64,000 nucleotides of DNA from a virus: positions 42,227 to 106,226 of IMG/VR virus record IMGVR_UViG_3300044630_005137; one strand, given 5' to 3'. The notes below the pieces were generated by a model, which saw only the letters and a program-made list of their open reading frames with translations, did not search any database and had not been told where the DNA came from. Made by a program: the position numbers and the translations under genes. Positions 13,456 to 64,000 of the stretch are shown one piece after another. The first letter of the stretch is position 1, and each line of letters starts with the position of its first letter.

Positions 13456-14057
13456 ACTTGCTCCAGGCTTATGTTAACACTCCAAAAGGGTTGTATGCCT
13501 CTTTTTATTACAGTAAAGTCGCATGAGGTAAACATCATATTGTAAGTATATTTATTTGCCAAGAGGCCAGATGATTCCTCTATCATATCTACTGGAAATA
13601 CTGTTGGGTTTAATTTAATTAAAAATGCACCTTGACCAGCTGCGCTTTCATAAAAAGTTTTTAAATCTTCTGCTCCCCATCCACCATCAACTGTTTCATT
13701 TCTAAATGACGGTATCATTGCCCAAGATATGGATAGGTTTAGTTTATCAGCAATAAAATACTTTCTTAATGTTCCATTTGACATTCTTTGGCTATTTTCA
13801 ATTCTATTTGTACTTATAGAAAGAGGATCTCTATTGTGCTCTGTAACTCTTCTAAATTTTGTTGCAGTTGTTTTATCGCTAGTTGCAAGACCGTTTTTAG
13901 CTGCTGTATGAAAATCATATATATTTCCTGGTGCTGGAATATTTACTCCCTTATAATCAAAAGTGTTGTTAGCTGTATCAATTGCAAGTGGGTCGGGTGC
14001 TTGTATATAGAGAATTGATCCCTTTGATAAATTTTGAAACAATGGGCTCTGTGTCAT
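13452..14057 (-). CDS. Distal tail (Dit-like) protein
   Basis: 201 aa directly after the tape measure. Motifs RM.NGTLRKY and W.V.I.LE.V. Confidence 0.65.
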   Translation of the reverse strand: MTQSPLFQNLSKGSILYIQAPDPLAIDTANNTFDYKGVNIPAPGNIYDFHTAAKNGLATSDKTTATKFRRVTEHNRDPLSISTNRIENSQRMSNGTLRKYFIADKLNLSISWAMIPSFRNETVDGGWGAEDLKTFYESAAGQGAFLIKLNPTVFPVDMIEESSGLLANKYTYNMMFTSCDFTVIKRGIQPFWSVNISLEQV

Positions 14058-17000: not shown

Positions 17001-20000
17001 TTTGCTCCAAGGTCTTTTATGCTATTGAGCCATCTTGAATATTTTGTTATATTATTACCCTCTGCGCCATATGTTTTGCCCATTACTTCTTCTTCAGTTC
17101 CAAGTTGAGAAATTGCTGTATCTATAAATCTTTTAGCAGTACCAAGTGGTGATTTAACATCTTTTAATGTTGGATCTTTACCTATTTCTTTTAGTAATGC
17201 TTGTCCGCCAGTTGAAAATTTTTGAACTTGGCCTCCATTTGCAAACCGACCAGCATTTATATCATCCATTGCTTTTACGCCATACTTTGCAACAGAAGAT
17301 GCCTTGATCACATATTCTCCATGTGAAAGCATCGCTGGAATAGAGTCTGATGTTGCAGTTCCTGGACCTCTAACCTTACCTCCGCTAGCATATGTTGGAC
17401 TGATATCTCTTTGGTACTGAATACTTCCATCATTTAAAACTAAGAATTGTTTTTTAACTCCATTAGCTTCTTCTAAAGTAAATTGTTGTCCTGGTTTATA
17501 TCCCTTTTTTGCTGCAAAGTACTTTACTGCGCTTCTATCATTAAATAATGGTGTGTTCCAATCAATATATTTTTTACCTACCGCGTCCTTTGCGGTTCCA
17601 GCATTTATTGGATCTTTATAAGTTCCGCCACCACGAATTGCTGCAACTATTTCTTCGGTCATTTTCTTTATTGAGTACCCCTTGCCACCAGTAATCTGAT
17701 CAGCAAACTTTGTTACTGCGGCAACATCTCTATCAAATATAGAAAGTGTGTCTTTATTTACAGATACTCTTGGAACTATTCCTGCAGTGCCAGCGTCTGG
17801 CAATCCAGCAGGTTTAGATTCTACATATACTTTCTTTACAGTTCCATCTTTATTAAAATATTCAGCAAAGGCTGATCTTATGTCCTTTGCAGTTTGGCTA
17901 TTTCCAGTTCCTGCCACACCAATTTGTTTAAGCAAATTATCAAGTCTGCCCAGAAGTTGTACCTCTGAATCTCTTTTTGCTTTGCTATCTGGTAACAGAT
18001 TATTTGTTATTCTTAGTGTAGTTATCTCATCATAAGTATCTTTAAAGCCTTTAATTAGATCTGCAATTTTAGTTGCGCTTGCTGCGCCATCTTGCGCTCC
18101 CTCGAACTTTTGGGCTGCTGCATCGGCTTTTGCTTGTTTTGCATCTATTTTCTTTTGCTCAATAGCCTTTAGTCTAGCTGCTTCGTCCTCTATTGCTTTT
18201 TGAGTTAGGTCAAACTGTCTATTACTAGTAAGTTGATCTATTTCTATTCTTGCTCTAGCTGCGCCAGCCTGATCTCCACGAGATATAGCGTCTGCATATT
18301 CTATTTGAAGCTTTTGTAATTCTAACGCATAGTTTGATGCATCTTGAGTTGCTCTTAAAGACTCTAATTTTTTATTTTTTTCATCTTCAATAAGACTAAT
18401 TTTTTTAGCAATTAATTTTAATTCTTCTTGAATATTTTTCTGTGTGGCAGCAGCAGCTTTTTGTGATGCGGCGGAAGTAGCTGCAATTGATTTTTGTAGC
18501 TTATTTAATATCTTTCCAACAGATCCATATGTGCTTCCGTCCCCAGCGGCTTTAGTTAATCCATCAATTCCTTCTCCAACTGCTGCAGTAAATCCAGCTA
18601 GCTTTATAGCTAATTCGCCATCAAGGTACTTAAGGTCTAGACCGATTCCAGAAGTAGATAGTTTTATTTTTGCTAAAATTGATTTTATTGAATCAAATTT
18701 ATTTGTAATTTTTGCTAACTCTGGACTCATATCTTGTATTACTTTAAAAGTTTCTTCTCCTATTGCAGCATTAAAATTAGGAACATCTTTTTCTAGATTT
18801 GCTAAAGATATTTGATATGCCTCATACTCATCAATGACTTCACCAGTTGCATTCTTTGTTCCAATAAGTGCTTTAGTACTAGAGTCAAATGTACTTATAA
18901 CACTTTCAAGACCAGATATAACACCCTTCTTGTATGCATTAGTATCTGCAAAAGCATTGGCATATCTATCAATTAGGCCAATGAATGTTAAATCTACGCC
19001 TCTTTCAAATAAGTTATTTTCTTCCTTCCATTGCTTAGTAAACCACATTGGTTGTTTTGCAAGATTATACTCAAAAGATCCCTTTGACCAACCAGTTTTT
19101 GGTTCAGGCTTTAATGTTTCTAGTAAATTTTTAACAGCAAACTCAGCCGCTGTGGCTTTATCTGTAATTGCACCAAATCCGCTATTGGCCAACAATTCAT
19201 AAGATTTTGTGGCTTTCTCGCTATTAGCAATTGCTCCGTAAATCATTCTATTTGCTTGCTCTACACTCAAGCCTCCTGCAATAAATTGTGCTTTTTGGTT
19301 GTTTATTAAAGTTTGAAGCTCTCCAGTGCTTGAAGTTCTATTAATTGATTCAATTAAATCTTTAAGAGCCGCGCCTTCTTCTTTTGCTTTCTTCATGTCT
19401 TCTACTGATTGTGGTATACCAGGCATTCCTATGGAGCTGCTTCTTCCTCCTTGTGCCGCAGCATTTGCCAATTTTTGTTTTTCAATATACTCTGTAAGGT
19501 AGTTATTAAGATTAAAGTATGATATTCCAGCTTGTTCAGCACCGTCTTTAGTAATGCCCAAAGACATTGCGGCATCCTGTTGAGCATTATTATATTTCTT
19601 CCAAACATCAAAGCCAATTAAAAGAACTGATATGACTACACCAACACCTTTAAGAATTTTAATATATTTACCTAATTGTGCTCCTAACTTAGATATTGCA
19701 TCTTTAAAGCCTTTAGCAGCTTTAATTGCAGCCATAGTTGCACTAGTGGTTGTTTTTATTTTGTTTCCAACTGTTAACCATGGGACCATAGGGATTATAG
19801 TTGATGCGGCCATAATACCTAATCCAGCATTCATTCCAGACATTTCCATGCCAAGCATATTAACTTTTTCCTGCTGCATCATGTACATTCCGCCCATGTT
19901 GCCAGCCATACCGATACCCATCTGGGCACCCATTCCCATTCCGCCTCTTATTTTGGTATCAAGCCCTGCTGCTTGTGCAGACTTTTTATCATGGATATAT

Positions 20001-23000
20001 CCGTCGGCGTCCATGTACTCACGTTTTCTGTAGCCCAAGGTTCCAACTTTACGGCTCTTTGTTCCATCTTGCCCAGTCTCTTTCCAATCGCCAACCATTC
20101 CAGGACCAGACATAGATATTGGCATAATTTGGCCAGGTCCCATTAGATAGTTTGCACCTGGATATGCAGCCGAATAGCTTCTAGCTTGATGTCTTAATAT
20201 ACCGTCCTTAATATCTCTTGTATTTGTTTTTACCCAATTAGAAAGGAATGAAGCATTTAGTCTTGCAGATGCTACTTGGGATTTTGCAAAATCTCTATAT
20301 GCGCTATTAATGTGAGTTGCTGATGTTGCAATTCCATATCTTAAACCTACTGTGCCGACCTTAATTGATTTAGTTAAAGAATCAAACGCTCTAGTTACTC
20401 CTGCTGGTAGCTGACCTATTTGAGAAAGCTTTAAGGTATCTATAATCTGTTGAGATTGACCAGTTGCTACTGAACCAAAAGCGTTACCAGCAACTCCAGA
20501 TCCTCCAACATAAGGAACTCGGATGACCTGCATTTGAGGGTTTCCTGAAGATGTGTATCCAGATCCAGATGGAGGATTATAAGATGCAGTTCTTGCTGCT
20601 CTTAATCTATCATCTTCAGCTCTTTTTGCTGGGTTTCCTGATCTCTGTGACCCTTTTTTATTCTTAGCGCCATATGCATATCTTCCTGATCTAACTGGGC
20701 CTCCGCCGATTGGGCCACCACTATTTCTTTTAGCTGCAACATGAACTGCATGCAGCGGACCAAAATCAGTTGCATCATCCATTCCATTTTCAAATCTTTG
20801 TAGCAATTTGATATATGGGGCTCTGTCTTCTCTCGGCAACGTTGCAACAAACTTAATAAGTTTTGGATGCATCTTTTTCATTGCGGCTTTTATTTTTCTG
20901 TTATACTGCTTAGATGTCATTCCTGCAGCAATTGGTGCTGTGTTTACTGCAAAGTCTTTCCTGGCTCCGCCTTTAACTCCAAGCAGATTTATCATAGCTT
21001 GATCTATCATAGAAGGAAGAGACTCTGCGTGTGCGGTATTGCGTGAAGCTTTAGGGAATACTCCTGCTGCTCCGACATCTGCCAAAACATTTCCATAAAC
21101 ATTGCTTGGAGATAAATCCTTATTATTCATAACTAAAGATGCAATTGTTTGTCTAATCATTTCATCTTCGGTAAAGACTGTTCCTCCAGTAGTAAACCTT
21201 TTATCAAACGGTGACTCAACACCGAGCAACTTTGATTTGCCACTTGGGTCTAATGGATTTGATATTGTTTTAATTGTTTGCTCAGGAGCATCAAGCCCAA
21301 ACACTTCTCTAGCCATTCTAGTTCCGTATACCTCAGCTTTAGCAGATATTTCATTTGGAACACCCTTAAAGAACTTAAGTCTACCTTCGGAGTCTCTGTA
21401 TAATCCAGAAACACCAGGTATTGGATAACTCATTCCAGAGCTTGGTGAAACCATGTGTCCATATTTAACGGGAGGCAAATCTTTAAACGATCCAGTTGCT
21501 GTAGCCCTTGACATTTCACGAGATTGCTCTAAAATATCAAGTTGCTTACCTGGCGGTAATAATTTTAACAATGGGGATATGCTAGTCCCTCTATCTCTGC
21601 CCGCTACTGCTTCTTTAATCCACGGGTACTTAATCATATCGGCTTCACGCTTTTTAGCATATTGAGCTTGCTGAGCCAATCTAATAGACTCTAGTCTTGC
21701 AGAGAGTGGAGGAACCACTCCGTATGAAAATCTACCTGGAGATACAGATCCACCTGGAATCATACCTCCCATGTTAAGTTTAGCAAGTACTGGTGTCATT
21801 ATAGGAGGTCTTCCTCTAGGGATTAACATCCATCTCTTTCTTTCCATAACGGCTTCAAGGAACATCTGAAGATCGTTTCTTTGCTTTGGTGTTGCTCTTA
21901 CAACTGAACCAGATGCAATTTGTTCTTTAGTTTTAAACAAATTATTTTCTTCAAGCGCTGTAGCAATATCATCTACTGTTGTCATCTTGTGCATTCCAAC
22001 AGATTTAAGTGCTATCTGAAAATTCTTTCTAGCATCTTCTCCGCTCAAGTGAAGTATGTCTGGAGATATTCCTATATCTTGAAGTCTAGCCATTATGCTG
22101 TTAATACCGTTTGGAATTACTGCGGCAACTCCCATGTGACCGCTAGTGGCATACCCAACATTTCCATGACGTGTAATATGGCCTCTAGCATGCAAGCCTT
22201 CTATATAAGGCATGCCCTTTGAATTCTTAAGATCAGTAGGAGTAACCCCTTCAATCAAATCAAATACATCTTTAAACTTTCGATTCTTAAGCATAGCGGA
22301 TCTTACATTATTTAGTTCATAGTTTAGGGCTGTGCTTCCGCCAGTGCTTCTAGTATTTGTAGGATCATTTAGCTTTAATCCAGGGAATTTAAGATTACCA
22401 TTAGCATCTTTAGCTCCTTCTAAACCTTGAACCTGTTTAATTCTTATGTCTATAAACTTCTCAATAGATCCGCCTGATTTTCCTATAGCTTTATCAAAGT
22501 TACTAGTTGCAATATTAATAGCTTTATCAATAGGCATTTTAGCTTTGCCTGCTAATTCAGCAGCATCTAACATGATCATTCTTACTCTAATGTCGTCTGC
22601 GTATCTTGGGTTATTAATAAATCTTAGATATTCTCTTAGCCTTCTCTTATAATAGGCTTTATTTTCTACTTGTGGAGTTTTGCCTGTCTTCTTTCCATAT
22701 CCAGTAACTCCATTCATTATCTGCCCGCCGAAATTGTAACCGCTATTTGCGGCATCTACAGCTGCATACAGTTCAGGCATTCTTTGAATCTTAGGACCAA
22801 ACACTACTTCCCGTGGTGTGAGTGCTGCTGTTATCTCTCCACCATTTTCATATGTAGCAGAAGCCATTGCAACAAGCGGTGCATTTGCTGGGTCCATAGA
22901 TGCTGATTGGTTTAATACGTATCCACCAACTGGAACACTTCCAAGTCTATCGTCATAGTTAATAGAAGATGGACCAGAAACCATAGTCTTGCCTGGGCCA

Positions 23001-25729
23001 AATGATTCAATGTCTCCACCAGTATTAAACTTAGGCATTCTTGTTGTCTGCATGCTATACGGAGCACCAAACGTTCTGATTCCACGCAGTCTACCAAACT
23101 CGGTCATTACAGCTGCGTTATTTTTTTTCTTATAAAGATCTCTTAATGTAAATTGACCATTTGCATCAACAACTGGTTGATCCATCATTGGGGCTCTTGT
23201 TAAATCAAGGCTTCTTCCACGTCCTGCAGCGTACATACTTACAGCAGCGCCCATGTCTGCTTCTATCTGTGCATTTAAAGCAATAATTCTTGCCTTTGCT
23301 TGATCAACTGTTATTTCTGCACTTCTCATTTGCTGAACTATTAATCCAGACTGTGTAGCTGCACTATCTGCAAATCTTTGAGTTATAGGAAGAATGTCAT
23401 CAAATGTGTCAAGGAGTTCTCTACTGACTGTTCCGCCCATCATAATTGTTTTCTTTAATGCTGCAATTTCTTGCTCTGTTTGCATTCCAAGTGTTGCCAT
23501 TAATGCATGGAACTTGGCTGCTTCTCCTGGAACAATTCCTGTAGATATTCCCTTTACGCTTGTTAGACCTTCAATGTTAGGTAGTCTATCATGCATATAC
23601 ATTTGAGGAGTTCTTGATATTCCTCTATTTACTGGTATTGCTCCTGGTACCCCGCCAAATATTGTTGCTGGCTTATTTGGGTCTCTAGGATTAATATGAG
23701 ACATTGCTCTTGTGTTAGGATCTCCTACATAAGGATCGTTAGGGTCAACAACTCTTCTTCCATGAGCAGGAGCAACAATTGTATTTCCAGCAACAGTAGA
23801 GACTCCTGCGTTTACTGGAACTGCACCCTTCATTGATGCTGCTTGAAGATTTTGATAATCTAAAACAAGTTTTTGAAGTGCATTGTGAAGAACTTGAGCC
23901 GCAGCTGCATCAGAATAAAATGCATTCTCGACTAGCTCTGCTGCTTTTTGTGCGGCAATAATTTCTGGAGTAAGCATCTTCCAGCCATTTGCTTTCATAA
24001 AGAATGCTCTTAGCTGGACAACACCCTTAGTTATATATCCAAAGAAGTTTGCGAGTAAACCAGTTAACATAATAAGTGGTCCAACTAATGCTGTAAATCC
24101 AGCAAGGAAGGTCAATCCTTTTTTAATTGGGTCTGGCAATTTAGTAAAGAAATCTAAGATTTTTGTTGCTGCGCTTATAAGCTTAGTTGCAACTCCAAGA
24201 AATTCCTGTCCTACATCTGCAAGCTCTGCTTTTAGTCCTTCTATGGCTCTCTTGTATTTACCAGATGCAGACTCTGTAACCATTTTTAATTCTCGGCTTG
24301 CTATATCTGCTAAATCTCCAGTACTTGCTTTCATCAATTCTAAAACTTGAAGCGTCTGGCTACCCTGTTTACCTAGATTATTAAGCAATGCGCTCATTCT
24401 TGCAAACTGGAACTTTCCAAACATTTGCTCCATTGCTCTTGCTTTACTTAGTGGGTCAAGGGAGTCTAAAGCTTTTTGCAGATCCATCAATAAACCAGTA
24501 GTGTCTCCAGTATTTTTTGCAACCATGCCCATAACATCTATGCCAAAATCTGACATCATCCCTACGGTTTGTTTTGTTGGGTTAATAAGAGATGCTAAAC
24601 CAGACTTCAAAGCGTTGGCACCTTCTGAAGCGCTAACACCACCTTCACGCATTGCAGTTAGATATAGGGCTAAGTCTTTAACATCTCCACCTAGCTGCTG
24701 AATCACTGGACCAGCTTTTGGAATTGCTTCTACTAGGTCATTAAGAGTTGTTGATGTCTGGTTTTCAACTGCGTTTAGAAAGTTAATAGATTCTGTTAGC
24801 TCTTGAGTATTTTGCTTAAAAGCTGTTTGAATTGATAATGTTGCTTTCATTGCATCTTGTCTATCAACTTCACCCAGAATAGCAAGTCTTGTTGTTTCTG
24901 CAATTGATCCTAGAAGTTCGTTTCCAGTTTGTCCTGTTGCTGCAATATCAGCACCTAATGCAATAGTATCCTTAAATGATGCACCCATTGTTTTAGATAA
25001 TGTTTTTGCAGTCTCAACAACTTCTTCTCTAATTGCTTTTAAATCTGAAGCAGATGTAGCTGCAAGACCACCGTAAACTTTTGTTAATCTTACAAGCTCT
25101 TGGTCTGCTTCTTTAAATGCTTTACCAGCTGCTGCTCCAAACATTGTGATTGGCACAGTAAGTCCTACAGTAAGCTGTCTACCAGCCCACTGAGTATTCT
25201 TACCCCAGTTAATTAAAGATCCTGCTCCCTCAGACAATGCACGATTCATAATCTGCATTTCCATTCGAGCTAGTTTTCCACTATTTGCTACAGCATCTAA
25301 TCCTCTAGGAATCATTACGTTATACTGCATTAACCCCTGAGCATTTCTACCTAGTGGTTGCAGTACTGAATTTTGAAGCATTACCTGTTCTTTGGCAAGC
25401 TCCCTGATCATACCCTTTTGAGTAGTAGTATGCTCTCTAAATGTAGAAAAATAATTTTTAAGCTTTAATCTACCAGCATCTAAGTTCTTACCGAACTTGT
25501 CTACATCAGAATTAAGGTTTACAAAGTGACTGGAGAACTGTCCGCTTCCAGTTAATGTATCTCTAAATAAATTGTTTGCTAATTTTGTTGAAGAAGAAAT
25601 TGCTTTGTTTGATGCAAGAAGCTCTCTTTGTAATTGTTGGAGACTAGAACTAGCCCTGTGTACTTCAGACACAAGGCTAGACAAGTCGGCTTTGGCGACT
25701 ATACTGGTTACAATTTGTTCGTCAGCCAC
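14057..25729 (-). CDS. Tape measure protein, 3890 aa, with embedded CHAP-like peptidase, LysM and further putative enzymatic modules
   Basis: Follows the tail chaperone. N-terminal TP901-type TMP core, hydrophobic segments, GPGTATSDSIPAMLSHGEYV motif, AWCGTFV...H...GN (CHAP) and HVVEKDQTLSQIA...LNP (LysM). Confidence 0.92.
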   Translation of the reverse strand: MADEQIVTSIVAKADLSSLVSEVHRASSSLQQLQRELLASNKAISSSTKLANNLFRDTLTGSGQFSSHFVNLNSDVDKFGKNLDAGRLKLKNYFSTFREHTTTQKGMIRELAKEQVMLQNSVLQPLGRNAQGLMQYNVMIPRGLDAVANSGKLARMEMQIMNRALSEGAGSLINWGKNTQWAGRQLTVGLTVPITMFGAAAGKAFKEADQELVRLTKVYGGLAATSASDLKAIREEVVETAKTLSKTMGASFKDTIALGADIAATGQTGNELLGSIAETTRLAILGEVDRQDAMKATLSIQTAFKQNTQELTESINFLNAVENQTSTTLNDLVEAIPKAGPVIQQLGGDVKDLALYLTAMREGGVSASEGANALKSGLASLINPTKQTVGMMSDFGIDVMGMVAKNTGDTTGLLMDLQKALDSLDPLSKARAMEQMFGKFQFARMSALLNNLGKQGSQTLQVLELMKASTGDLADIASRELKMVTESASGKYKRAIEGLKAELADVGQEFLGVATKLISAATKILDFFTKLPDPIKKGLTFLAGFTALVGPLIMLTGLLANFFGYITKGVVQLRAFFMKANGWKMLTPEIIAAQKAAELVENAFYSDAAAAQVLHNALQKLVLDYQNLQAASMKGAVPVNAGVSTVAGNTIVAPAHGRRVVDPNDPYVGDPNTRAMSHINPRDPNKPATIFGGVPGAIPVNRGISRTPQMYMHDRLPNIEGLTSVKGISTGIVPGEAAKFHALMATLGMQTEQEIAALKKTIMMGGTVSRELLDTFDDILPITQRFADSAATQSGLIVQQMRSAEITVDQAKARIIALNAQIEADMGAAVSMYAAGRGRSLDLTRAPMMDQPVVDANGQFTLRDLYKKKNNAAVMTEFGRLRGIRTFGAPYSMQTTRMPKFNTGGDIESFGPGKTMVSGPSSINYDDRLGSVPVGGYVLNQSASMDPANAPLVAMASATYENGGEITAALTPREVVFGPKIQRMPELYAAVDAANSGYNFGGQIMNGVTGYGKKTGKTPQVENKAYYKRRLREYLRFINNPRYADDIRVRMIMLDAAELAGKAKMPIDKAINIATSNFDKAIGKSGGSIEKFIDIRIKQVQGLEGAKDANGNLKFPGLKLNDPTNTRSTGGSTALNYELNNVRSAMLKNRKFKDVFDLIEGVTPTDLKNSKGMPYIEGLHARGHITRHGNVGYATSGHMGVAAVIPNGINSIMARLQDIGISPDILHLSGEDARKNFQIALKSVGMHKMTTVDDIATALEENNLFKTKEQIASGSVVRATPKQRNDLQMFLEAVMERKRWMLIPRGRPPIMTPVLAKLNMGGMIPGGSVSPGRFSYGVVPPLSARLESIRLAQQAQYAKKREADMIKYPWIKEAVAGRDRGTSISPLLKLLPPGKQLDILEQSREMSRATATGSFKDLPPVKYGHMVSPSSGMSYPIPGVSGLYRDSEGRLKFFKGVPNEISAKAEVYGTRMAREVFGLDAPEQTIKTISNPLDPSGKSKLLGVESPFDKRFTTGGTVFTEDEMIRQTIASLVMNNKDLSPSNVYGNVLADVGAAGVFPKASRNTAHAESLPSMIDQAMINLLGVKGGARKDFAVNTAPIAAGMTSKQYNRKIKAAMKKMHPKLIKFVATLPREDRAPYIKLLQRFENGMDDATDFGPLHAVHVAAKRNSGGPIGGGPVRSGRYAYGAKNKKGSQRSGNPAKRAEDDRLRAARTASYNPPSGSGYTSSGNPQMQVIRVPYVGGSGVAGNAFGSVATGQSQQIIDTLKLSQIGQLPAGVTRAFDSLTKSIKVGTVGLRYGIATSATHINSAYRDFAKSQVASARLNASFLSNWVKTNTRDIKDGILRHQARSYSAAYPGANYLMGPGQIMPISMSGPGMVGDWKETGQDGTKSRKVGTLGYRKREYMDADGYIHDKKSAQAAGLDTKIRGGMGMGAQMGIGMAGNMGGMYMMQQEKVNMLGMEMSGMNAGLGIMAASTIIPMVPWLTVGNKIKTTTSATMAAIKAAKGFKDAISKLGAQLGKYIKILKGVGVVISVLLIGFDVWKKYNNAQQDAAMSLGITKDGAEQAGISYFNLNNYLTEYIEKQKLANAAAQGGRSSSIGMPGIPQSVEDMKKAKEEGAALKDLIESINRTSSTGELQTLINNQKAQFIAGGLSVEQANRMIYGAIANSEKATKSYELLANSGFGAITDKATAAEFAVKNLLETLKPEPKTGWSKGSFEYNLAKQPMWFTKQWKEENNLFERGVDLTFIGLIDRYANAFADTNAYKKGVISGLESVISTFDSSTKALIGTKNATGEVIDEYEAYQISLANLEKDVPNFNAAIGEETFKVIQDMSPELAKITNKFDSIKSILAKIKLSTSGIGLDLKYLDGELAIKLAGFTAAVGEGIDGLTKAAGDGSTYGSVGKILNKLQKSIAATSAASQKAAAATQKNIQEELKLIAKKISLIEDEKNKKLESLRATQDASNYALELQKLQIEYADAISRGDQAGAARARIEIDQLTSNRQFDLTQKAIEDEAARLKAIEQKKIDAKQAKADAAAQKFEGAQDGAASATKIADLIKGFKDTYDEITTLRITNNLLPDSKAKRDSEVQLLGRLDNLLKQIGVAGTGNSQTAKDIRSAFAEYFNKDGTVKKVYVESKPAGLPDAGTAGIVPRVSVNKDTLSIFDRDVAAVTKFADQITGGKGYSIKKMTEEIVAAIRGGGTYKDPINAGTAKDAVGKKYIDWNTPLFNDRSAVKYFAAKKGYKPGQQFTLEEANGVKKQFLVLNDGSIQYQRDISPTYASGGKVRGPGTATSDSIPAMLSHGEYVIKASSVAKYGVKAMDDINAGRFANGGQVQKFSTGGQALLKEIGKDPTLKDVKSPLGTAKRFIDTAISQLGTEEEVMGKTYGAEGNNITKYSRWLNSIKDLGAKAFAWCGTFVQWAAHMSGVKIPDTFYTADGAKSFAGLGQLVDVATTIPTKIDDRSASDDVGESPRASDFNVGVNYDTGKYYGNPKDIERYEKAADEYYKKYHAYQAKREKSKQDKAKAGWARILKNPPKPGDIMYLNWAQQSSDSDTNRIRHAAIATEVKREKSYSGVEQFSISTVDGNIRDRVSQSGYYLTKESVGDNALVAYARPNFMPSPLTAIEDAISAAVNQRTTHVVEKDQTLSQIAKSLNIDSKVLAELNPDYLLGNTVYKGSRINIPKKFAGGGMVQAFGEGGGPGIPSWPKKRKKFKSPGMGIDKYTPPLIGSGASAWSGGLLGGGGGFTVGMHDGGYVHPHPHDALTNTLIQAPRKGTTAYAKYAYEMARNYGGAAKTAAKLTKPIKVSDGPAYSWLGSDGTIGYSRHDKYKYVDAGMGSASEVASQILNDLSKTAMRAKIIEMNAKRFHKGGPVGHKHKYGEPTSKKQNWLQRYVSGLTESQDEAQAILSRSPLTSWMASDPLGAVAALRKATGQSREGDNLSASLLPFNFMGFGLGARVGMGATGVANSARLANATTGAGGPAVSSMKSSKASKTIIRNLQKKAMEYAEARGASIPEMVLSGDRALTDAPTTFFSPPGTDLSRAYNYYWGEAWEILNKNGDPAIKDVSKEYFMTMLGLMGKGQISRAETAETVTTEFSKAANKAYAAAHGLDPNQPLAMYKATEAHSKLGGYWSLSSKMAAHYASDAHLNLTGDKAGNWMGGSNAGLYKIDVLPEQVPTPLSIGGMYDEFTSTLPPELVELLGGGQRIAVGGKKFTVRGDKRGTPGPQRANTADEFYSVVRGAALPQGIYPHDLSRLMKTDLHSRNLPFMDAINNTFKKLLEFGSIRPKFANGGMVNSLSNLGVPMFENGINMVPANMLAMLHKNEAVIPANMNPFNPNASAAVSGSVYNISVELNGTNVTAQDVATQIHKEMRLKEMAAGVNRRVGNG

Positions 25730-58835: not shown

Positions 58836-58851
58836 TGTTTCACGTGAAACC
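58836..58851. promoter_or_regulatory. parS centromere-like site TGTTTCACGTGAAACC
   Basis: Contains the perfect 14-bp palindrome GTTTCACGTGAAAC. 15/16 match to the consensus TGTTTCACGTGAAACA. Intergenic. Confidence 0.8.
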
Positions 58852-58964: not shown

Positions 58965-58978
58965 ATTCTACTCCTTTG

Positions 58979-59053
58979 TAGGCCTATTGGGATTTGAACC
59001 CAAAGTCGATTGCATATAAGACAATTGCTTTAACCAGGTTAAGCTATAGGCCC
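58979..59053 (-). tRNA. tRNA-Ile, anticodon UAU (no encoded CCA)
   Basis: Full cloverleaf: acceptor GGGCCTA/TAGGCCT, D stem GCTT/AAGC, anticodon arm ATTGT-CT TAT AT-GCAAT, T arm TTGGG-TTCAAAT-CCCAA, discriminator A. Confidence 0.9.
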
Positions 59054-59368: not shown

Positions 59369-60088
59369 CTATAAATATTTATGTGGAGTTGTGTAAAATC
59401 CTTCAGGCAAATCATCTTCCCCAAATATTCCATTTACAGCACTAGACATTTTAATTGAATCTATGCCTTCATATAGCTGATCATTTTTTCTTAATTCCTC
59501 AGCTTCAGGAAGTGATGCAAATCCAGCTACAATATATCTGACTTTATCGCCTCTTACATCTTCTGTATAGTGTGCATATTCTTCCCATCCAGGATGTAAC
59601 AGCAAATCTCCTTTTTGTGGTTTATATTGAAAGCCAATATTTGGATAAGATATTTCACCACCGTCAAAATTGCTTATATAATGAGTAACGCCAAATACGC
59701 ATTTATTGTCCATCCCCATTGATTCCACCAAATTATCTGCATGTAGGAACATAGACTGGCCTTTGGTCATTCTATGAACAGAGTTCATGCTTTCGACCCA
59801 AAGCTCTTGTCTAAAGAGCTCCTGTAGCCTTATACGCATATGTTTTAGCTCTGCGTCCAACTCTTTATCTTCTACAAAGAAGAATTTCCCATGCCACCAT
59901 TCTCGCTTGTTTTTGTCCCACCAAATATCTTCTCCAAAAGATTCTACATGGCTTACAAGCCTATCGCATAGATCATCTGATAACCAGTTTTTTAGTACAA
60001 CAATGTTTTTCTCAATTAGTACCGCATTAGGTTCTTTTTCTAATATTTGAGAAAGTTGTTTCTTAACTATAGATGCATATGGTTCCAT
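59369..60088 (-). CDS. 2OG-Fe(II) oxygenase (leaderless, start MEPY)
   Basis: HAD...NFDGGEI.YP...KPQKGDL..HP...H.......VRY. TTGACT-16-TATAAT ends 6 nt before the ATG. Confidence 0.88.
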   Translation of the reverse strand: MEPYASIVKKQLSQILEKEPNAVLIEKNIVVLKNWLSDDLCDRLVSHVESFGEDIWWDKNKREWWHGKFFFVEDKELDAELKHMRIRLQELFRQELWVESMNSVHRMTKGQSMFLHADNLVESMGMDNKCVFGVTHYISNFDGGEISYPNIGFQYKPQKGDLLLHPGWEEYAHYTEDVRGDKVRYIVAGFASLPEAEELRKNDQLYEGIDSIKMSSAVNGIFGEDDLPEGFYTTPHKYL

Positions 60089-60228
60089 GCTCTTATTATA
60101 CACCGCCCTATATTCTAGTCAACTGCTTTTTAAGATCTATAAAAATGTTAATATATTTTTTACATGTATGATACACAATTTGGGCAAAACGGACATTTCG
60201 GATAGTGCGCCCATGTTTTAGGGTGTTT

Positions 60229-60269
60229 TGTGATGTATCTCACACGATTTTTTTGTGACTTACACCACA
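60229..60269. promoter_or_regulatory. Two CRP/GlxR-like sites (60229-60244 perfect, 60254-60269 one mismatch)
   Basis: TGTGA-tgtatc-TCACA and TGTGA-cttaca-CCACA. Confidence 0.65.
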
Positions 60270-60303
60270 ATGTCCGAATTATACGCATTTTGAATTAGAC
60301 ATT

Positions 60304-60325
60304 TGTCAGACCCCCATGCTATGCT
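60304..60325 (+). promoter_or_regulatory. PafBC/RecA-NDp-type promoter 1
   Basis: TGTCAG-acccccatgc-TATGCT. Confidence 0.7.
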
Positions 60326-60360
60326 TAAGGTATAACAAACAAACGAAAGGTAATCATCTA

Positions 60361-60507
60361 ATGAATACACTAGAACGAATTAGAAAAGAACAACAAGAAC
60401 GCTATGCGATACAGCGTGAAAAGGATAAGGCTAAGATAGAGGCTATGTTTTCTAATAACCCTCGCCCTTTAAATAACGCTTACCTACTAGCGAAAGAGGA
60501 AAACTAG
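60361..60507 (+). CDS. Small early protein (start MNTLER)
   Basis: GAAAGG RBS before the ATG at 60361. Confidence 0.7.
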   Translation: MNTLERIRKEQQERYAIQREKDKAKIEAMFSNNPRPLNNAYLLAKEEN

Positions 60508-60523
60508 TGTGACTAAGGTCACA
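60508..60523. promoter_or_regulatory. CRP/GlxR-like site
   Basis: TGTGA-ctaagg-TCACA. Confidence 0.65.
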
Positions 60524-60562
60524 AAAATACTTTTGCGACACACCCCCCTAACCTCCCCAATT

Positions 60563-60584
60563 TGTCAGACCCCCATGCTACAAT
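60563..60584 (+). promoter_or_regulatory. PafBC/RecA-NDp-type promoter 2
   Basis: TGTCAG-acccccatgc-TACAAT. Confidence 0.72.
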
Positions 60585-60616
60585 TACAACATAACAACAA
60601 CGAAAGGTCAGAATAA

Positions 60617-60730
60617 ATGACACTAGATGAATACAAGCAAATGGTAGAGGCTCAACGCCTTGCCTCCCTCGCAATCGCCCTAGAGGCGCTAACTAAGTCA
60701 AACGCTATTGCTAAGGAGATGAATAAATAA
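60617..60730 (+). CDS. 37-aa early protein
   Basis: MTLDEYKQMVEAQR... GAAAGG RBS and TAATG coupling to the next gene. Confidence 0.65.
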   Translation: MTLDEYKQMVEAQRLASLAIALEALTKSNAIAKEMNK

Positions 60731-60912
60731 TGTCATACGCATACTCATACGAAACTAACTCAATCTCTAAATGGGACACCATTCAAGAAGATGTCGCAGA
60801 CGCATACGCCTACCTTGATGAGGTAGATGAGGAACAACCTCCACTAGATGACTTCAATGATGAAGATACAGATGAACTAGCAAAACTATACGAACTAACT
60901 TGGGAGAACTAA
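60730..60912 (+). CDS. Highly acidic 60-aa early protein
   Basis: AAGGAG RBS. D/E-rich. Confidence 0.7.
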   Translation: MSYAYSYETNSISKWDTIQEDVADAYAYLDEVDEEQPPLDDFNDEDTDELAKLYELTWEN

Positions 60913-60914
60913 TA

Positions 60915-61064
60915 ATGACTATCACTTACTCACTATGGGACGGCGCACAATTCTTGGGTTTCTTTACCGCAACTAGCGCAGACGAAATGAACAAGACAGT
61001 AAAAGATTTACAATCAATCTCTAAAAATGTAGTAGCACACCTACGAAAGGTAGAACAGAACTAA
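60915..61064 (+). CDS. 49-aa early protein
   Basis: MTITYSLWDGAQFLG... GGAG RBS, translationally coupled. Confidence 0.65.
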   Translation: MTITYSLWDGAQFLGFFTATSADEMNKTVKDLQSISKNVVAHLRKVEQN

Positions 61065-61264
61065 TGACTATTGAACTAAATGAATACGGCTTAATGCTTG
61101 ACCTAGGGGACTTCCTCTATCTATCCCTATCATGGGCTTTCCTTATCTTGTTCGCCGTTGTTTTTATCGGTTATAAGATTTATAAGAGAGTGCAAGCGCA
61201 TAGATGGGCATCTCTAATTAAAAATGAACTAGATGAATTACCTAATGATGAATGGGGTATCTAA
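61064..61264 (+). CDS. Small membrane protein
   Basis: One hydrophobic helix. Coupled to its neighbours. Confidence 0.7.
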   Translation: MTIELNEYGLMLDLGDFLYLSLSWAFLILFAVVFIGYKIYKRVQAHRWASLIKNELDELPNDEWGI

Positions 61265-61383
61265 TGAATAGACTACTAACTACTCTAGTGCAATTAGCCC
61301 TTATCGTTCCCGCCCTTATCATGGGGCGCATGATGTGGCGCGAGATCGTAGCCGACTATAGAGAGTGGGCTAACTCACACTAG
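61264..61383 (+). CDS. 39-aa membrane peptide
   Basis: MNRLLTTLVQLALIVPALIMGR...*. TAATG coupling. Confidence 0.6.
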   Translation: MNRLLTTLVQLALIVPALIMGRMMWREIVADYREWANSH

Positions 61384-61385
61384 CC

Positions 61386-61615
61386 TAACGGCGTGTCGGC
61401 TTGACATTGTCTAGCTGGCCCGCAAAAGAGCGGGGTTATCCACAGGGTTACGGGGGTTATCCACAACCCCCAGGTTTTGCAAGCACGACACGCCCGAGAT
61501 CCGTGTGATTTTTATCACATGACTTGAGCGTCTCACATCATGGACTTACTCGCTAGTAAGTATCTTTTTGTCGGTGGTATCGGCTATAATTGCGGTATAA
61601 CGAAAAAGAAAGGTG
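61386..61615 (+). repeat. Intergenic regulatory module copy 1 (2 DnaA boxes, CRP-like site, palindromes, PafBC-type promoter 3, RBS)
   Basis: TTATCCACA at 61436-61444 and 61457-61465. TGTGA-N6-TCACA at 61504-61519. TGTCGG-N10-TATAAT at 61569-61590. Confidence 0.9.
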
Positions 61616-61621
61616 GTCACC

Positions 61622-61798
61622 ATGACTACACTAAACACACTATGCAAGGCGCATGAGCCTCTTGTTTCCGCTATCTCCGAAATTGGAGATGAACAATTTA
61701 CCCTATGCATGATTTGCGATAGCAACATTGAGCGTTATTACTACGATAGCGACCCTGAGCAATTTCCTACATGGACAGATTGGTATGTGACTAAATGA
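61622..61798 (+). CDS. Small Cys/His early protein
   Basis: C..H...C..C. GAAAGG RBS. Confidence 0.7.
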   Translation: MTTLNTLCKAHEPLVSAISEIGDEQFTLCMICDSNIERYYYDSDPEQFPTWTDWYVTK

Positions 61799-61917
61799 GT
61801 ATTTGGACAAGGTTCGCTACTGTAAGCGATTACCCTAAAGGTATGATGAACGAGTGCGTGTGTGGGCAAGTAGTCCTAGCACCTAAGACACGACATGAGA
61901 ATTGCGAGAATAAATAA
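61795..61917 (+). CDS. 40-aa Cys/His early protein
   Basis: MSIWTRF...CVCGQ...H..C. ATGA overlap with the upstream gene. Confidence 0.6.
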   Translation: MSIWTRFATVSDYPKGMMNECVCGQVVLAPKTRHENCENK

Positions 61918-62081
61918 TGAGTACCTATGTACCAATTAAATCCGTATGTGGTGCGGTATCCACCACAATTAAAATGAACGACTATGACTTAAACCCTCAT
62001 GGCGTTATCTGTTGCGATAATTGCGAAAGCATTTTGTTATGCCGTAAGGCGTGGGACTTTCTTTATAAGGGGAATAAATAA
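61917..62081 (+). CDS. 54-aa Cys-rich early protein
   Basis: MSTYVPIKSVCG...CCDNC. TAATG coupling. Confidence 0.6.
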   Translation: MSTYVPIKSVCGAVSTTIKMNDYDLNPHGVICCDNCESILLCRKAWDFLYKGNK

Positions 62082-62221
62082 TGCCAGTTTTTAATTTTGA
62101 TTTATCCGTAACCATTGAGGACGATAATTTTGAGTCTGCCTTATCATGGTTAAAGGTTATTCCATTGGAACGCCTTGATTTTATTGTTGTCGATTATACA
62201 GAATTAGAGGTTAGCGAATGA
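62081..62221 (+). CDS. 46-aa acidic early protein
   Basis: MPVFNFDLSVTIEDDNFE... Coupled on both sides. Confidence 0.6.
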   Translation: MPVFNFDLSVTIEDDNFESALSWLKVIPLERLDFIVVDYTELEVSE

Positions 62222-62412
62222 AATCACAATTTGAGAAAGATTTAGAAATCAAAGAAAGTTTTATTGATTTACTAAATGAAATTTATCCAACTGTAAAAAT
62301 TGGTTATTCAACTTTTACACCCGCCGAAATCTTAGAGTGTTGCGACCCTGTTGCTTTTGCGATTGGTTTAGTAGAGCATGAAGATTATTTAGCAGAAATG
62401 GAAAATGAATAA
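62218..62412 (+). CDS. Small early protein
   Basis: 64-aa ORF, F.DLLNE.YP.V.IG...F.P.EIL...DP.A. Confidence 0.7.
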   Translation: MKSQFEKDLEIKESFIDLLNEIYPTVKIGYSTFTPAEILECCDPVAFAIGLVEHEDYLAEMENE

Positions 62413-62507
62413 TGGATTTTTTTGGATTTGAAAAAGCAATTGAAATTGATCATCTTACCGATGAGCAAATCTTAAAGCTTGAAGAAATTTTTAAAGATTT
62501 CGAATAA
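62412..62507 (+). CDS. 31-aa acidic early peptide
   Basis: MDFFGFEKAIEIDHLTDEQ... TAATG coupling. Confidence 0.55.
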   Translation: MDFFGFEKAIEIDHLTDEQILKLEEIFKDFE

Positions 62508-62508
62508 G

Positions 62509-62730
62509 TAACGGCGTGTCGGCTTGACAAAGCTGATGCGCCCGCAAAAGAGCGGGGTTATCCACAGGGTTACGGAGGTTATCCACAACCCCTGGAATTT
62601 GCGACACGCCCGAGATTTTGTGATTTTTATCACACGACTTGAGCGTCTCATTATTTGGAATTACTGGCTAGTAATTATCTTTTGTCAGTGCTATCCGCTA
62701 TAATTGCTACTATCAACAAACGAAAGGTGA
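62509..62730 (+). repeat. Intergenic regulatory module copy 2 (2 DnaA boxes, CRP-like site, palindromes, PafBC-type promoter 4, RBS)
   Basis: TTATCCACA at 62558-62566 and 62579-62587. TGTGA-N6-TCACA at 62619-62634. TGTCAG-N10-TATAAT at 62683-62704. Confidence 0.9.
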
Positions 62731-62736
62731 CAACTA

Positions 62737-62949
62737 ATGTCAGCAAATGTCTATTCAATAGAAAGCCTACTTATAGGAAAAACTTATCACTCACGCACTT
62801 TAACAGGCGAAATAATTGACGCAGAAAAGTCTGATGTCTTTTATGGCGCAGGTTTGGAAAGTTATCGGGTTCAGGTTCGCCCACACTATCCCTCAGTATT
62901 TAATCTAAAAGATACTTATCGCTATCTATCAGTTAAGGTCAGTGACTAA
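62737..62949 (+). CDS. Small early protein
   Basis: 70 aa with a GAAAGG RBS. Confidence 0.7.
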   Translation: MSANVYSIESLLIGKTYHSRTLTGEIIDAEKSDVFYGAGLESYRVQVRPHYPSVFNLKDTYRYLSVKVSD

Positions 62950-63140
62950 TGATTAAAGAATACATTGACGAAAACGAATTTTATTTTATTAAAGATGAAA
63001 TAAAAATCTGTTGTGATGAACAACAGTTTATCCATGTCTGCAAAGCGCATGGCGAGCAACAAGGTTGCTACTTTTGCGAATTTAACCCTTATGAGAATTG
63101 CGAGTGTGAAGGCTTATTCGATAGCCCCGAAGCCGACTAA
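62949..63140 (+). CDS. Cys-rich acidic early protein
   Basis: CC...C..H....GC.FC......C.C. Confidence 0.7.
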   Translation: MIKEYIDENEFYFIKDEIKICCDEQQFIHVCKAHGEQQGCYFCEFNPYENCECEGLFDSPEAD

Positions 63141-63141
63141 A

Positions 63142-63163
63142 TGTCAGTGGGCTAGGCTATAAT
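63142..63163 (+). promoter_or_regulatory. PafBC/RecA-NDp-type promoter 5
   Basis: TGTCAG-tgggctaggc-TATAAT. Confidence 0.72.
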
Positions 63164-63191
63164 AAGCAATAACAACAACGAAAGGAAAACT

Positions 63192-63317
63192 ATGATTAAC
63201 TCAGTAATGACGATAGATTGTAAAGATTGCCACGGATACGGCATAATCTTTTTTGGTAATGATAATGACTATGATTGCGAGCCATGCGATTGCGTGGAAG
63301 AATTGGAGAACAACTAA
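63192..63317 (+). CDS. 41-aa Zn-finger-like early protein
   Basis: C..C.G.G...C.PC.C. GAAAGG RBS. Confidence 0.65.
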   Translation: MINSVMTIDCKDCHGYGIIFFGNDNDYDCEPCDCVEELENN

Positions 63318-63523
63318 TGTATAAACTAACTTGCGCTTATGACTCAAATGCTCCGCATTGGTCAGCGGAATACGAAAACGAATTTGGTGCGTGGGAAAAC
63401 TTTTTCCTATTTACCGATTGGGGATTTGCTGATGAATACGCAACTGTAAATCTTTACACGCCAACAGGCAAATGCCACACAAAAATTTTTTACCGAGAAG
63501 GTCGAAAGGTCGTAATTAAATGA
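63317..63523 (+). CDS. Small early protein (start MYKLT)
   Basis: GGAG RBS and TAATG coupling. Confidence 0.7.
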   Translation: MYKLTCAYDSNAPHWSAEYENEFGAWENFFLFTDWGFADEYATVNLYTPTGKCHTKIFYREGRKVVIK

Positions 63524-63678
63524 AAACTTTTGAATTCCTAACCTACATAAATGTAGAAGCAGAAAACTATGATGAGGCTATTGATGTATTTCAATTTCAA
63601 TTAAAATACGGAATAAATAAAAATAATGTCTATGTCGCAGACATAACAGATTTAACTATCGAAAGCGTAGAGGTATAA
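63520..63678 (+). CDS. 52-aa early protein
   Basis: MKTFEFLTYINVEAENYDEA... ATGA overlap. Confidence 0.6.
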   Translation: MKTFEFLTYINVEAENYDEAIDVFQFQLKYGINKNNVYVADITDLTIESVEV

Positions 63679-63680
63679 AA

Positions 63681-63872
63681 ATGATGACACGAAAAGATTA
63701 TGTCGCTACCGCAGAAATTCTAAAGTATGCTAGCGATAAAACTCACCCTGCTGTATTTTCTAAAATGGTAAATGATTTCGCTGAAATGTTTGCGAAAGAT
63801 AATGAGCGATTTGATGTAAAGCGATTTCATGAAGCGAGTGGGTATCATGTCCCAAAATTCACTTCGAGATAA
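63681..63872 (+). CDS. Small early protein
   Basis: MTRKDY...A.IL...F..DN.RFD..RF..A pattern. Confidence 0.7.
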   Translation: MMTRKDYVATAEILKYASDKTHPAVFSKMVNDFAEMFAKDNERFDVKRFHEASGYHVPKFTSR

Positions 63873-63978
63873 GGTAAAGCGAATTCAGGAATTGCGTCGC
63901 AGTAATGCGGCGCAACCTGTTCGCAATAAGAAAAAATATTTTAGAAAGATCAAACATAAAAATAAAATTGCAGAGTAA
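63847..63978 (+). CDS. 43-aa basic early peptide (ELRRSNAA)
   Basis: MSQNSLRDKVKRIQELRRSNAAQPVRNKKKYFRKIKHKNKIAE*. The start codon is uncertain. Confidence 0.5.
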   Translation: MSQNSLRDKVKRIQELRRSNAAQPVRNKKKYFRKIKHKNKIAE

Positions 63979-64000
63979 TGCATAGTTATGCAGCCCGCAA

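Follow-up and report, generated by a model that had tools for sequence, protein, structure and literature searches.

Two paralogous intergenic modules, each about 230 bp long and each carrying the same ordered stack of predicted regulatory elements, were characterized near the end of a 64,000-nucleotide stretch of DNA (hereafter the window) from the phage record IMGVR_UViG_3300044630_005137. The source contig is a 106,226-bp IMG/VR record, classed as linear and ~91% complete; the window represents its final 64 kb, and window position 64000 is the contig end. Judged from their composition, conservation and spacing, copy 1 (window 61386-61625) and copy 2 (window 62509-62740) are rather probably cis-regulatory cassettes that would be read by proteins, mainly those of the host. 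That the sites are bound at all, by which proteins, and with activation or repression as the outcome, is what we infer from the sequence.

The sequence of copy 1 matched itself and window 62509-62729 (83% identity, E 1e-57) and had no further match in the 106-kb genome, and every element that a sequence-only reading of this DNA had listed was found in both copies in the order given there. That reading had also held that the spacers drift while the motifs stay, and a global alignment of the two copies bore this out: 96/99 motif columns (97%) were identical versus 93/142 of the remaining columns (65%), with a Fisher p of 3e-10 that is partly circular because the motifs were chosen from the same alignment. 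Two of the motifs were also enriched, with 5 DnaA-type boxes of the sequence TTATCCACA in the window versus 0.73 expected and 4 TGTGA-N6-TCACA palindromes in the genome versus 0.08 expected, the latter all within one 2.4-kb stretch and all upstream of early promoters. Among relatives, a module-derived exact 27-mer was present in 51 IMG/VR stretches, and the composite of two direct TTATCCACA boxes and the palindrome in at least 119; complete relatives carry three or four modules, and the relative L010, which spans the whole early region, holds modules A (192-370), B (1206-1400), C (2586-2720) and D (4406-4525). Module types C and D fell outside the selection of the first retrieval pattern, and 16-22 unique sequences were compared for them. 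The hairpin stem, both boxes with their GG flank and TTACG linker, CCCTGGAATTT, the palindrome half-sites, TGTCAGTG, the -10 hexamer and the leader were invariant in these types, with variation in the filler separating the boxes and in the 30-40 nt that separate palindrome from promoter. Per-base conservation was concentrated in the motifs both in the copy pair and in types C and D, and was far from the uniform pattern expected of a simple duplication. The earlier proposal that such motif-restricted conservation reflects protein binding is supported by the alignment of the two copies, by the conservation within C and D, by the helical phasing of the palindrome and by flips in box orientation; taken together, motif conservation, phasing and orientation flips would favour protein binding over plain duplication or a long RNA fold.

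Each of the two modules contains a pair of predicted DnaA boxes, giving four perfect 9/9 matches to TTATCCACA / TTWTNCACA, and the box variants found in relatives, such as TGTGGAAAA and TGTGGATAA, remain within TTWTNCACA. The second box has the same orientation as the first in B and C and the opposite one in the A-variants and D, and remains a consensus box in either case (TGTGGAAAA, TGTGGATAA); because the orientation flips with the sequence kept, the arrangement would suit a factor that binds as one monomer per box, such as DnaA. Among the 93 unique box-pair contexts of the related loci L003-L053, the palindrome lay 11-14 nt downstream in 48 and a promoter within 150 nt in 80. The 45 flagged contexts were read by eye and were either B-type copies, in which the palindrome lies ~31 nt downstream and outside the 45-nt search window because the 9-mer CGACACGCC is inserted between, or the opposite strand of inverted pairs, and no uncoupled box pair was seen among the 93 contexts. 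The host was placed in Actinomycetota because the contig encodes a WhiB (46 bits, exceeding the Pfam cut-off), a mark of actinobacterial phages, and a DnaE that is 57% identical to the DnaE of the Streptomyces phages BillNye, Circinus and Wakanda. Perfect TTATCCACA pairs spaced 20-24 nt apart were found in 32 of 401 sampled Actinomycetota genomes versus 0 for the reversed control, a comparison made at the level of the phylum. Most of these host-genome pairs were clustered, and in both genomes checked they lay between dnaA and dnaN. The predicted box pairs do follow an oriC grammar that exists in the host phylum. The 19-mer GGTTATCCACAGGNTTACG, which comprises box 1 and the linker, gave 29 matches in 185,579 species genomes versus ~17 expected, none of them at oriC; eight of the 29 were a Nocardia coding repeat, two were 1-kb Chitinophagales-binned contigs with diverged phage modules, and the single match resembling a true box cluster was a Nocardiopsis site upstream of dnaB. 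This Nocardiopsis alba cluster (L086:4700-4790, ~175 nt upstream of dnaB) contains three DnaA-type boxes, TTTCCACA, TTATCCACA and an inverted TGTGGAAAA, and has the GG-TTACG linker and the 14-nt spacing of the phage inverted-pair modules.

The palindrome that accompanies the boxes, in which a T-rich 5' flank adjoins a perfect TGTGA-N6-TCACA core, is predicted to be a CRP/GlxR-type site. Its position relative to the promoter was assayed over 452 unique palindrome-promoter units, which were grouped by spacer and downstream sequence into 66 clusters. The distances from the palindrome start to TGTCRG peaked at 34, 44, 54, 64/65, 75 and 86, with a period of 10.3-10.5 and a Rayleigh R of 0.53 (p ~1e-8, an optimistic value because the clusters may share deep ancestry), and those of the window units were 75, 55, 65 and 64. 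Such a placement of the palindrome on a fixed helix face relative to the promoter is the predicted signature of a factor touching RNA polymerase. The promoter itself resembles that of PafBC, for which the mycobacterial consensus is tGTCgg(N10)tA(N3)T, 22 nt in length, with a -26 element replacing the -35 element (Müller et al. 2021, PMC8635444). The phage early promoters match this 22-nt mycobacterial consensus, and a consensus promoter scan found no sigma-70-type -35/-10 pair at the TGTCRG promoters. Lake metatranscriptome contigs from 85-95% relatives cover genes and module parts, including the 5' part of copy 2, and others cross promoters; two runs include a contig with an end at about 61587-61592, not far from where the transcript of copy 1 is predicted to start, and the crossing contigs bar conclusions on starts, ends and expression.

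The two 230-bp modules belong to a larger set of early promoter units, in which they are the richest. Six TGTCRG-N10-TAnnnT units, each with a leader ending in ACGAAAGG followed by ATG, were found at contig position 66 and at window 60304, 60563, 61569, 62683 and 63142. These are all the intergenic matches to the promoter pattern in the genome and all lie in the rightward early region, the seventh match being within a coding region. Four of the six units have the TGTGA-N6-TCACA palindrome upstream, and promoter and leader stand alone at window 63142 and at contig position 66. In L010, ~14 promoters of the TGTCAG-N10-TAnnnT type occur within 10.5 kb. The sequence-only reading had placed a probable third copy at 63993-64000, and relatives indeed continue there as the same hairpin and then a further module (L010:2586-2720; L027:10460-10590). 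In L027, the closest relative (92-94% identical), the hairpin, a palindrome-like site and the promoter of this third module are preserved, and the GACAC-type 9-mer GGCGTGTCG stands exactly at the place of DnaA box 1 with the flanks GGGGT...TTACGGG unchanged, an in-place swap of one motif for another.

Several observations concern the mobility of these units within the early region. A 52-amino-acid (aa) open reading frame (ORF) lies downstream of module B in the window (63520-63678), and is found between A and B in L010 (792-898), L004, L024 and others, and the inter-module distances vary among relatives (845, 1014 and 1122). With the position of this small ORF differing among relatives, cassettes are shuffled within the early region. 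The relocation of the ORF, the inter-module distances and the in-place motif swap all fit the recombinational exchange of early-gene cassettes that the sequence-only reading had envisaged; its further point, that the repeats could promote this exchange, is not proven by them. At least 15 of the 51 related contigs (L003-L053) end within ~850 nt of a module, and the present contig breaks off within one; it appears that assemblies of this phage lineage break at the repeats.

Upstream of the boxes, two stem-loops, hp0 and hp1, follow the stop codon of the preceding gene. Across 97 variants, hp1 was paired in 82.5% of cells versus 32-65% with the partner column slid, and its covariation score was 0.134 versus at most 0.041 in the controls, with GC to CG and CG to UA swaps; the strand test on hp1 gave 17 G-U versus 28 A-C cells and no strand preference. 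The hp0 hairpin keeps TTGACA and changes in its stem, from G:C to A:T in B, to a longer palindrome in A and to GTCCCC/GGGGAC in diverged copies (L075). Both copies folded better than shuffles (z -3.5 to -4.5), both strands folded equally well, and an Rfam search of window 60000-64000 gave no relevant match at E up to 10 and only noise. Diverged module copies were also present on L071 and L075, two 1.1-kb contigs binned as a Chitinophagales metagenome-assembled genome, with a compensated hairpin (GCCCACA/TGTGGGC) and the 3' arm after the palindrome; these two contigs are almost certainly mis-binned phage fragments.

The outer 9-mers, GGCGTGTCG and CGACACGCC, were considered as the arms of larger structures, and two such candidates were rejected. 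A long-range GGCGTGTCG/CGACACGCC stem was discarded on the grounds that A-variants lose the 3' arm with the 5' arm unchanged and that diverged copies place the 3' arm past the palindrome, and a miniature inverted-repeat element on the grounds that there is no target-site duplication and that the 9-mer recurs singly. At other promoters, the GACAC-type 9-mer occurs singly 26-27 nt upstream of TGTCRG, or 17-18 nt upstream in the other orientation, and thus the GACAC core in relatives lies either 23 or 13 nt ahead of the -26 element, positions that differ by one helical turn. GACAC is also the motif of WhiA, and it occurs on either strand upstream of promoters activated by WhiA/WhiB (Lilic et al. 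2023, PMC10243135). A WhiA/WhiB link of the phage 9-mer is suggested by this likeness as a lead only.

Predicted elements of the two modules and of the neighbouring promoter units, in window coordinates.
Feature	Position	Strand	Remarks
Copy 1, GGCGTGTCG	61390-61398	+	GACAC-type 9-mer, reverse orientation; 7 nt past upstream stop codon TAG 61381-61383
Copy 1, hp0, first stem-loop	61399-61417	+	built around TTGACA
Copy 1, hp1, GC-rich stem-loop GCCCGC-loop-GCGGGG	61418-61435	+	abuts DnaA box 1
Copy 1, predicted DnaA box pair TTATCCACA	61436-61444 and 61457-61465	+	21 nt start to start; GG-TTACG linker invariant
Copy 1, CGACACGCC	61486-61494	+	GACAC-type 9-mer, forward orientation
Copy 1, CRP/GlxR-type palindrome TGTGA-N6-TCACA	61504-61519	+	65 nt upstream of TGTCGG
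Copy 1, palindrome TGAGCGTCTCA	61525-61535	+	
Copy 1, palindrome TTACT-N4-AGTAA	61546-61559	+	
Copy 1, predicted promoter TGTCGG-N10-TATAAT, no -35 element	61569-61590	+	fits PafBC consensus tGTCgg(N10)tA(N3)T
Copy 1, conserved leader	61591-61624	+	Shine-Dalgarno GAAAGG 61608-61613; ATG 61622 of 58-aa Cys-rich early gene
Copy 2, GGCGTGTCG (62513-62521), hp0, hp1 (62540-62556)	62513-62556	+	
Copy 2, two predicted DnaA boxes (62558, 62579)	62558-62587	+	
Copy 2, CGACACGCC	62602-62610	+	
Copy 2, TGTGA-N6-TCACA	62619-62634	+	64 nt upstream of TGTCAG
Copy 2, TGAGCGTCTCA (62640) and TTACT-N4-AGTAA (62661)	62640-62674	+	
Copy 2, predicted promoter TGTCAG-N10-TATAAT (62683-62704), leader, GAAAGG (62722-62727), ATG (62737)	62683-62739	+	
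First rightward early promoter unit	60229-60325	+	palindrome 60229, TGTCAG promoter 60304, spacing 75, no DnaA boxes
Second unit	60508-60584	+	palindrome 60508, CGACACACC 60535, promoter 60563, spacing 55
Promoter of same type with same leader	63142-63163	+	no upstream module
5' arm of first hairpin (hp1) of third module	63993-64000	+	cut by contig end

The early region is the only plus-strand block of the contig, running from window 60304 to the contig end and resuming at the contig start, and consists of tiny genes; the minus strand carries nearly all genes of the contig. The replisome genes comprise DnaE (Pol III alpha), a DnaB-type helicase and a DnaG-type primase. The phage is apparently lytic; a profile search of the contig found no tyrosine integrase, and the contig integrase search together with Pfam searches of the early-region ORFs found no integrase or repressor-like gene. 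The sequencing runs containing the stretch are lake-water metagenomes, related contigs likewise come from lake water, and a megablast of window 61000-64000 against GenBank phages gave no match. A near-perfect parS of the chromosomal type (TGTTTCACGTGAAACC) lies at window 58836-58851, between divergent genes to the left of the early block; in 16 relatives with loci extending that far, the 14-mer core of this site stands at the same relative place, 0.2-1.9 kb ahead of the first early promoter. The first leftward gene encodes a 2OG-Fe(II) oxygenase (59369-60103) and has a promoter TTGACT-16-TATAAT, 11/12 canonical, at window 60095-60122 on the minus strand, so that a leftward gene with a canonical -35/-10 promoter stands opposite rightward early genes with promoters of the -35-less TGTCAG type. 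Elsewhere, the sole tRNA of the window is a tRNA-Ile with anticodon TAT (minus strand; 58978-59053), a single ORF of 3,890 aa (contig 56283-67955; window 14057-25729, minus strand) is the presumed tape measure protein, and further contig genes encode a tryptophan halogenase (347 bits), a glutathione-peroxidase-like protein and a GlcNAc transferase.

To assess which proteins might read the modules, the contig was searched with the profiles DnaA_C, HTH_Crp_2, WYL and ParB_N, and none was found. Ten early ORFs of the window had no confident Pfam match, and ten L010 ORFs from the segment missing in the present contig matched only DUF932, DUF1281_C and one weak sub-threshold family, none of which suggests DNA binding. 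Host proteins are the likelier binders, given that even the first promoter has the palindrome upstream and that no phage genes for cognate binders were seen. For the individual sites, the palindrome is the best assigned, and we lean towards its being read by a CRP-family protein; for the boxes, the prospect that DnaA reads them is about evenly balanced; reading of the promoters via PafBC is a possibility that we hold more tentatively. The module would have arisen by duplication, after which selection would have preserved the protein-binding sites, and each copy would now form the full control region between two early-gene cassettes. In this arrangement, the two stem-loops behind the upstream stop codon would, to judge from their position, probably end, insulate or stabilise the upstream transcript. 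An upstream block would follow in which the DnaA box pair is tightly coupled to the CRP/GlxR-type palindrome and is accompanied by the GACAC-type 9-mers and two further palindromes. The -35-less promoter, with its -26 TGTCRG and -10 TAnnnT elements, has the layout used by the PafBC-assisted sigma-A holoenzyme in mycobacteria and may be recognized likewise, and the conserved leader would supply GAAAGG as the ribosome-binding site. The palindrome lies on a fixed helix face relative to the promoter, like class I activator sites, and host proteins would most likely read the sites as soon as infection begins.

Several findings weigh against this host-read cassette, in addition to the optimistic phasing p-value. 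Conservation reaches past the 9-mer boxes into the GG flank, the TTACG linker and CCCTGGAATTT, and therefore a larger site is possible, and a minor class of palindromes lies at 49-50 bp, half a turn out of phase. As to the hairpins, they lack the T-tract of an intrinsic terminator (the tail is GTTATCC) and were not called by the consensus scan. The composite of palindrome and TGTCRG promoter occurred in 0 of the 401 sampled Actinomycetota genomes, and therefore the module copies no host promoter class in that sample. The Streptomyces phage BillNye, the closest cultured relative by DnaE, had no TGTCRG-type promoter, no CRP palindrome and none of the module motifs in the 43 kb examined. Finally, the contig end aligns to L010:2593 and the contig start to L010:10489, so that ~8 kb is absent from the present contig. 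Within this missing segment, L010 has module D ahead of a gene for a 335-aa DUF932 protein (L010:4556-5563, 191 bits).

Some of these points would be accommodated if the modules were operators for phage-encoded early proteins that auto-regulate the early cascade, the likeness to host sites being convergent or partial, an explanation that we regard as unlikely. In its favour, the composite architecture is confined to this phage lineage in the comparison with BillNye and the 401 Actinomycetota genomes, conservation extends past the canonical cores, TGAGCGTCTCA and TTACT-N4-AGTAA have no known host cognate, and dozens of early ORFs have no known function. Precedents exist in phiC31, with its conserved inverted repeats, and in the cluster A mycobacteriophages, with their stoperators, where short operators for a phage repressor likewise recur at early promoters in many copies; however, those sites are bound by the repressor of a temperate phage, whereas here neither an integrase nor a repressor-like gene was found and the sites match host-factor consensus sequences. 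The palindrome, moreover, already precedes the first rightward promoter (60229/60304), which has to be active when no phage protein has yet been made, and a coincidence of 9/9, 10/10 and 22-nt matches to three independent host-factor motifs together with a conserved parS is improbable. The flip in box orientation also argues against a dimeric helix-turn-helix binder.

If DnaA is indeed the reader of the boxes, two roles other than promoter control come into consideration. The box pairs might be replication initiation sites that recruit host DnaA, with the adjacent promoters activating the origin by transcription, as is suggested by perfect boxes spaced as in actinobacterial oriC, by phage replisome genes without a DnaA_C-containing initiator, by the conserved parS nearby and by the DnaA boxes carried in plasmid and phage origins such as P1 oriR. 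We consider this quite improbable, since each site has only two boxes, the three or four pairs are dispersed over ~4 kb, a palindrome and a promoter are rigidly coupled to every pair, the pairs have no distinct AT-rich unwinding element at their side, and one module type of L027 has a GACAC motif instead of a box; GC skew is uninformative on an origin because nearly all genes lie on one strand. The boxes might also act physically, either by tethering the first-injected DNA to membrane-bound DnaA or, after amplification of the phage DNA, by titrating host DnaA (and CRP) in the manner of a decoy, to which we give still less credence. T5-like phages have eight DnaA boxes in the terminal-repeat region, all within one 1.6-kb untranslated region at the injection stop, and a DnaA tether has been proposed for them (Davison 2020, bioRxiv 10.1101/866236). 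The phage region resembles this array in its consensus boxes and fixed geometry, in belonging to the early region of a large lytic siphovirus without a dnaA gene, and in number, as the L010 early region also has eight boxes, in four pairs; the DnaE relatives are, furthermore, long-terminal-repeat siphoviruses. The T5 model is itself only proposed, however, so that function is putative in both cases, and the phage boxes differ in being dispersed between genes in short intergenic modules, each upstream of a promoter, rather than gathered in one untranslated region; their number varies among relatives, and the host phylum is another. The least credible explanation, in our view very improbable, would have the module be chiefly a structured RNA, or else a recent neutral duplication or a miniature inverted-repeat element with GGCGTGTCG and CGACACGCC as its boundaries. 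Folding better than shuffles in both copies, compensatory changes in hp0 and hp1, and the coverage of the 5' part of copy 2 by RNA-library contigs of relatives are in accord with it, but there was no Rfam match, the long-range stem is not kept, neither folding nor the G-U versus A-C count showed a strand preference, conservation is non-uniform, promoter phasing is a DNA-level property, and the 9-mer recurs singly with no target-site duplication.

The preferred reading, a cassette of sites for host regulators, can be compared with the nearest known promoter systems. Class I CRP/GlxR promoters share with the phage units the perfect palindrome core, the T-rich 5' flank and the spacing in helical-turn steps, whereas the phage sites centre at about -64.5, -74.5, -85 and -95.5 (with the start assumed 7 nt after the -10 element), include a half-turn class and are partnered with a promoter that lacks a -35 element. 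In E. coli, the class I positions differ from these centres by ~3 bp. The PafBC (RecA-NDp) promoters of mycobacteria (PMC8635444) are alike in the 22-nt layout, the -26 element, the -10 hexamer and the missing -35 element, but in the phage the fifth base is mostly A (TGTCAG), and the motif, present ~14 times per genome in relatives and 6 times in this incomplete contig, serves a whole early region rather than host repair genes and is combined with upstream CRP-type and DnaA-type sites, with PafBC dependence being putative. As to the WhiA/WhiB promoters (PMC10243135), the asymmetric GACAC upstream of the core promoter on either strand is shared, and the phage encodes a WhiB; the 9-mers of the window modules, in contrast, lie far upstream (~-110 and -210), and the conserved unit of 9 nt is longer than GACAC. 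A literature search found no account of a cassette joining DnaA, CRP-family and PafBC consensus sites in fixed geometry. Repeated early promoter-operator cassettes and DnaA-box arrays are already known in phages, and the candidate new element is the combination of three regulators.

Carried further, these features could mean that lytic freshwater actinophages run their whole early programme on host regulators, with PafBC-type promoters gated by a phased CRP-family activator and by DnaA on oriC-style pairs, and with parS adjoining, so that the incoming DNA would behave as an origin-proximal, damage-inducible host locus reading the energy, replication and damage state of the cell; so far-reaching an interpretation we think doubtful. 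Should binding follow what the sequences of the sites suggest, the modules would be the first phage case of a PafBC-type sigma adaptation used for early transcription, and a compact 230-bp test object for the cooperation of DnaA, CRP and PafBC at one promoter. The repeats would also account for the assembly breaks in the early region of these phages. Lakes contain these phages in abundance, and their hosts are uncultured low-GC actinobacteria; if the promoter code could be read, it would aid both the annotation of the phage early regions and the prediction of hosts.

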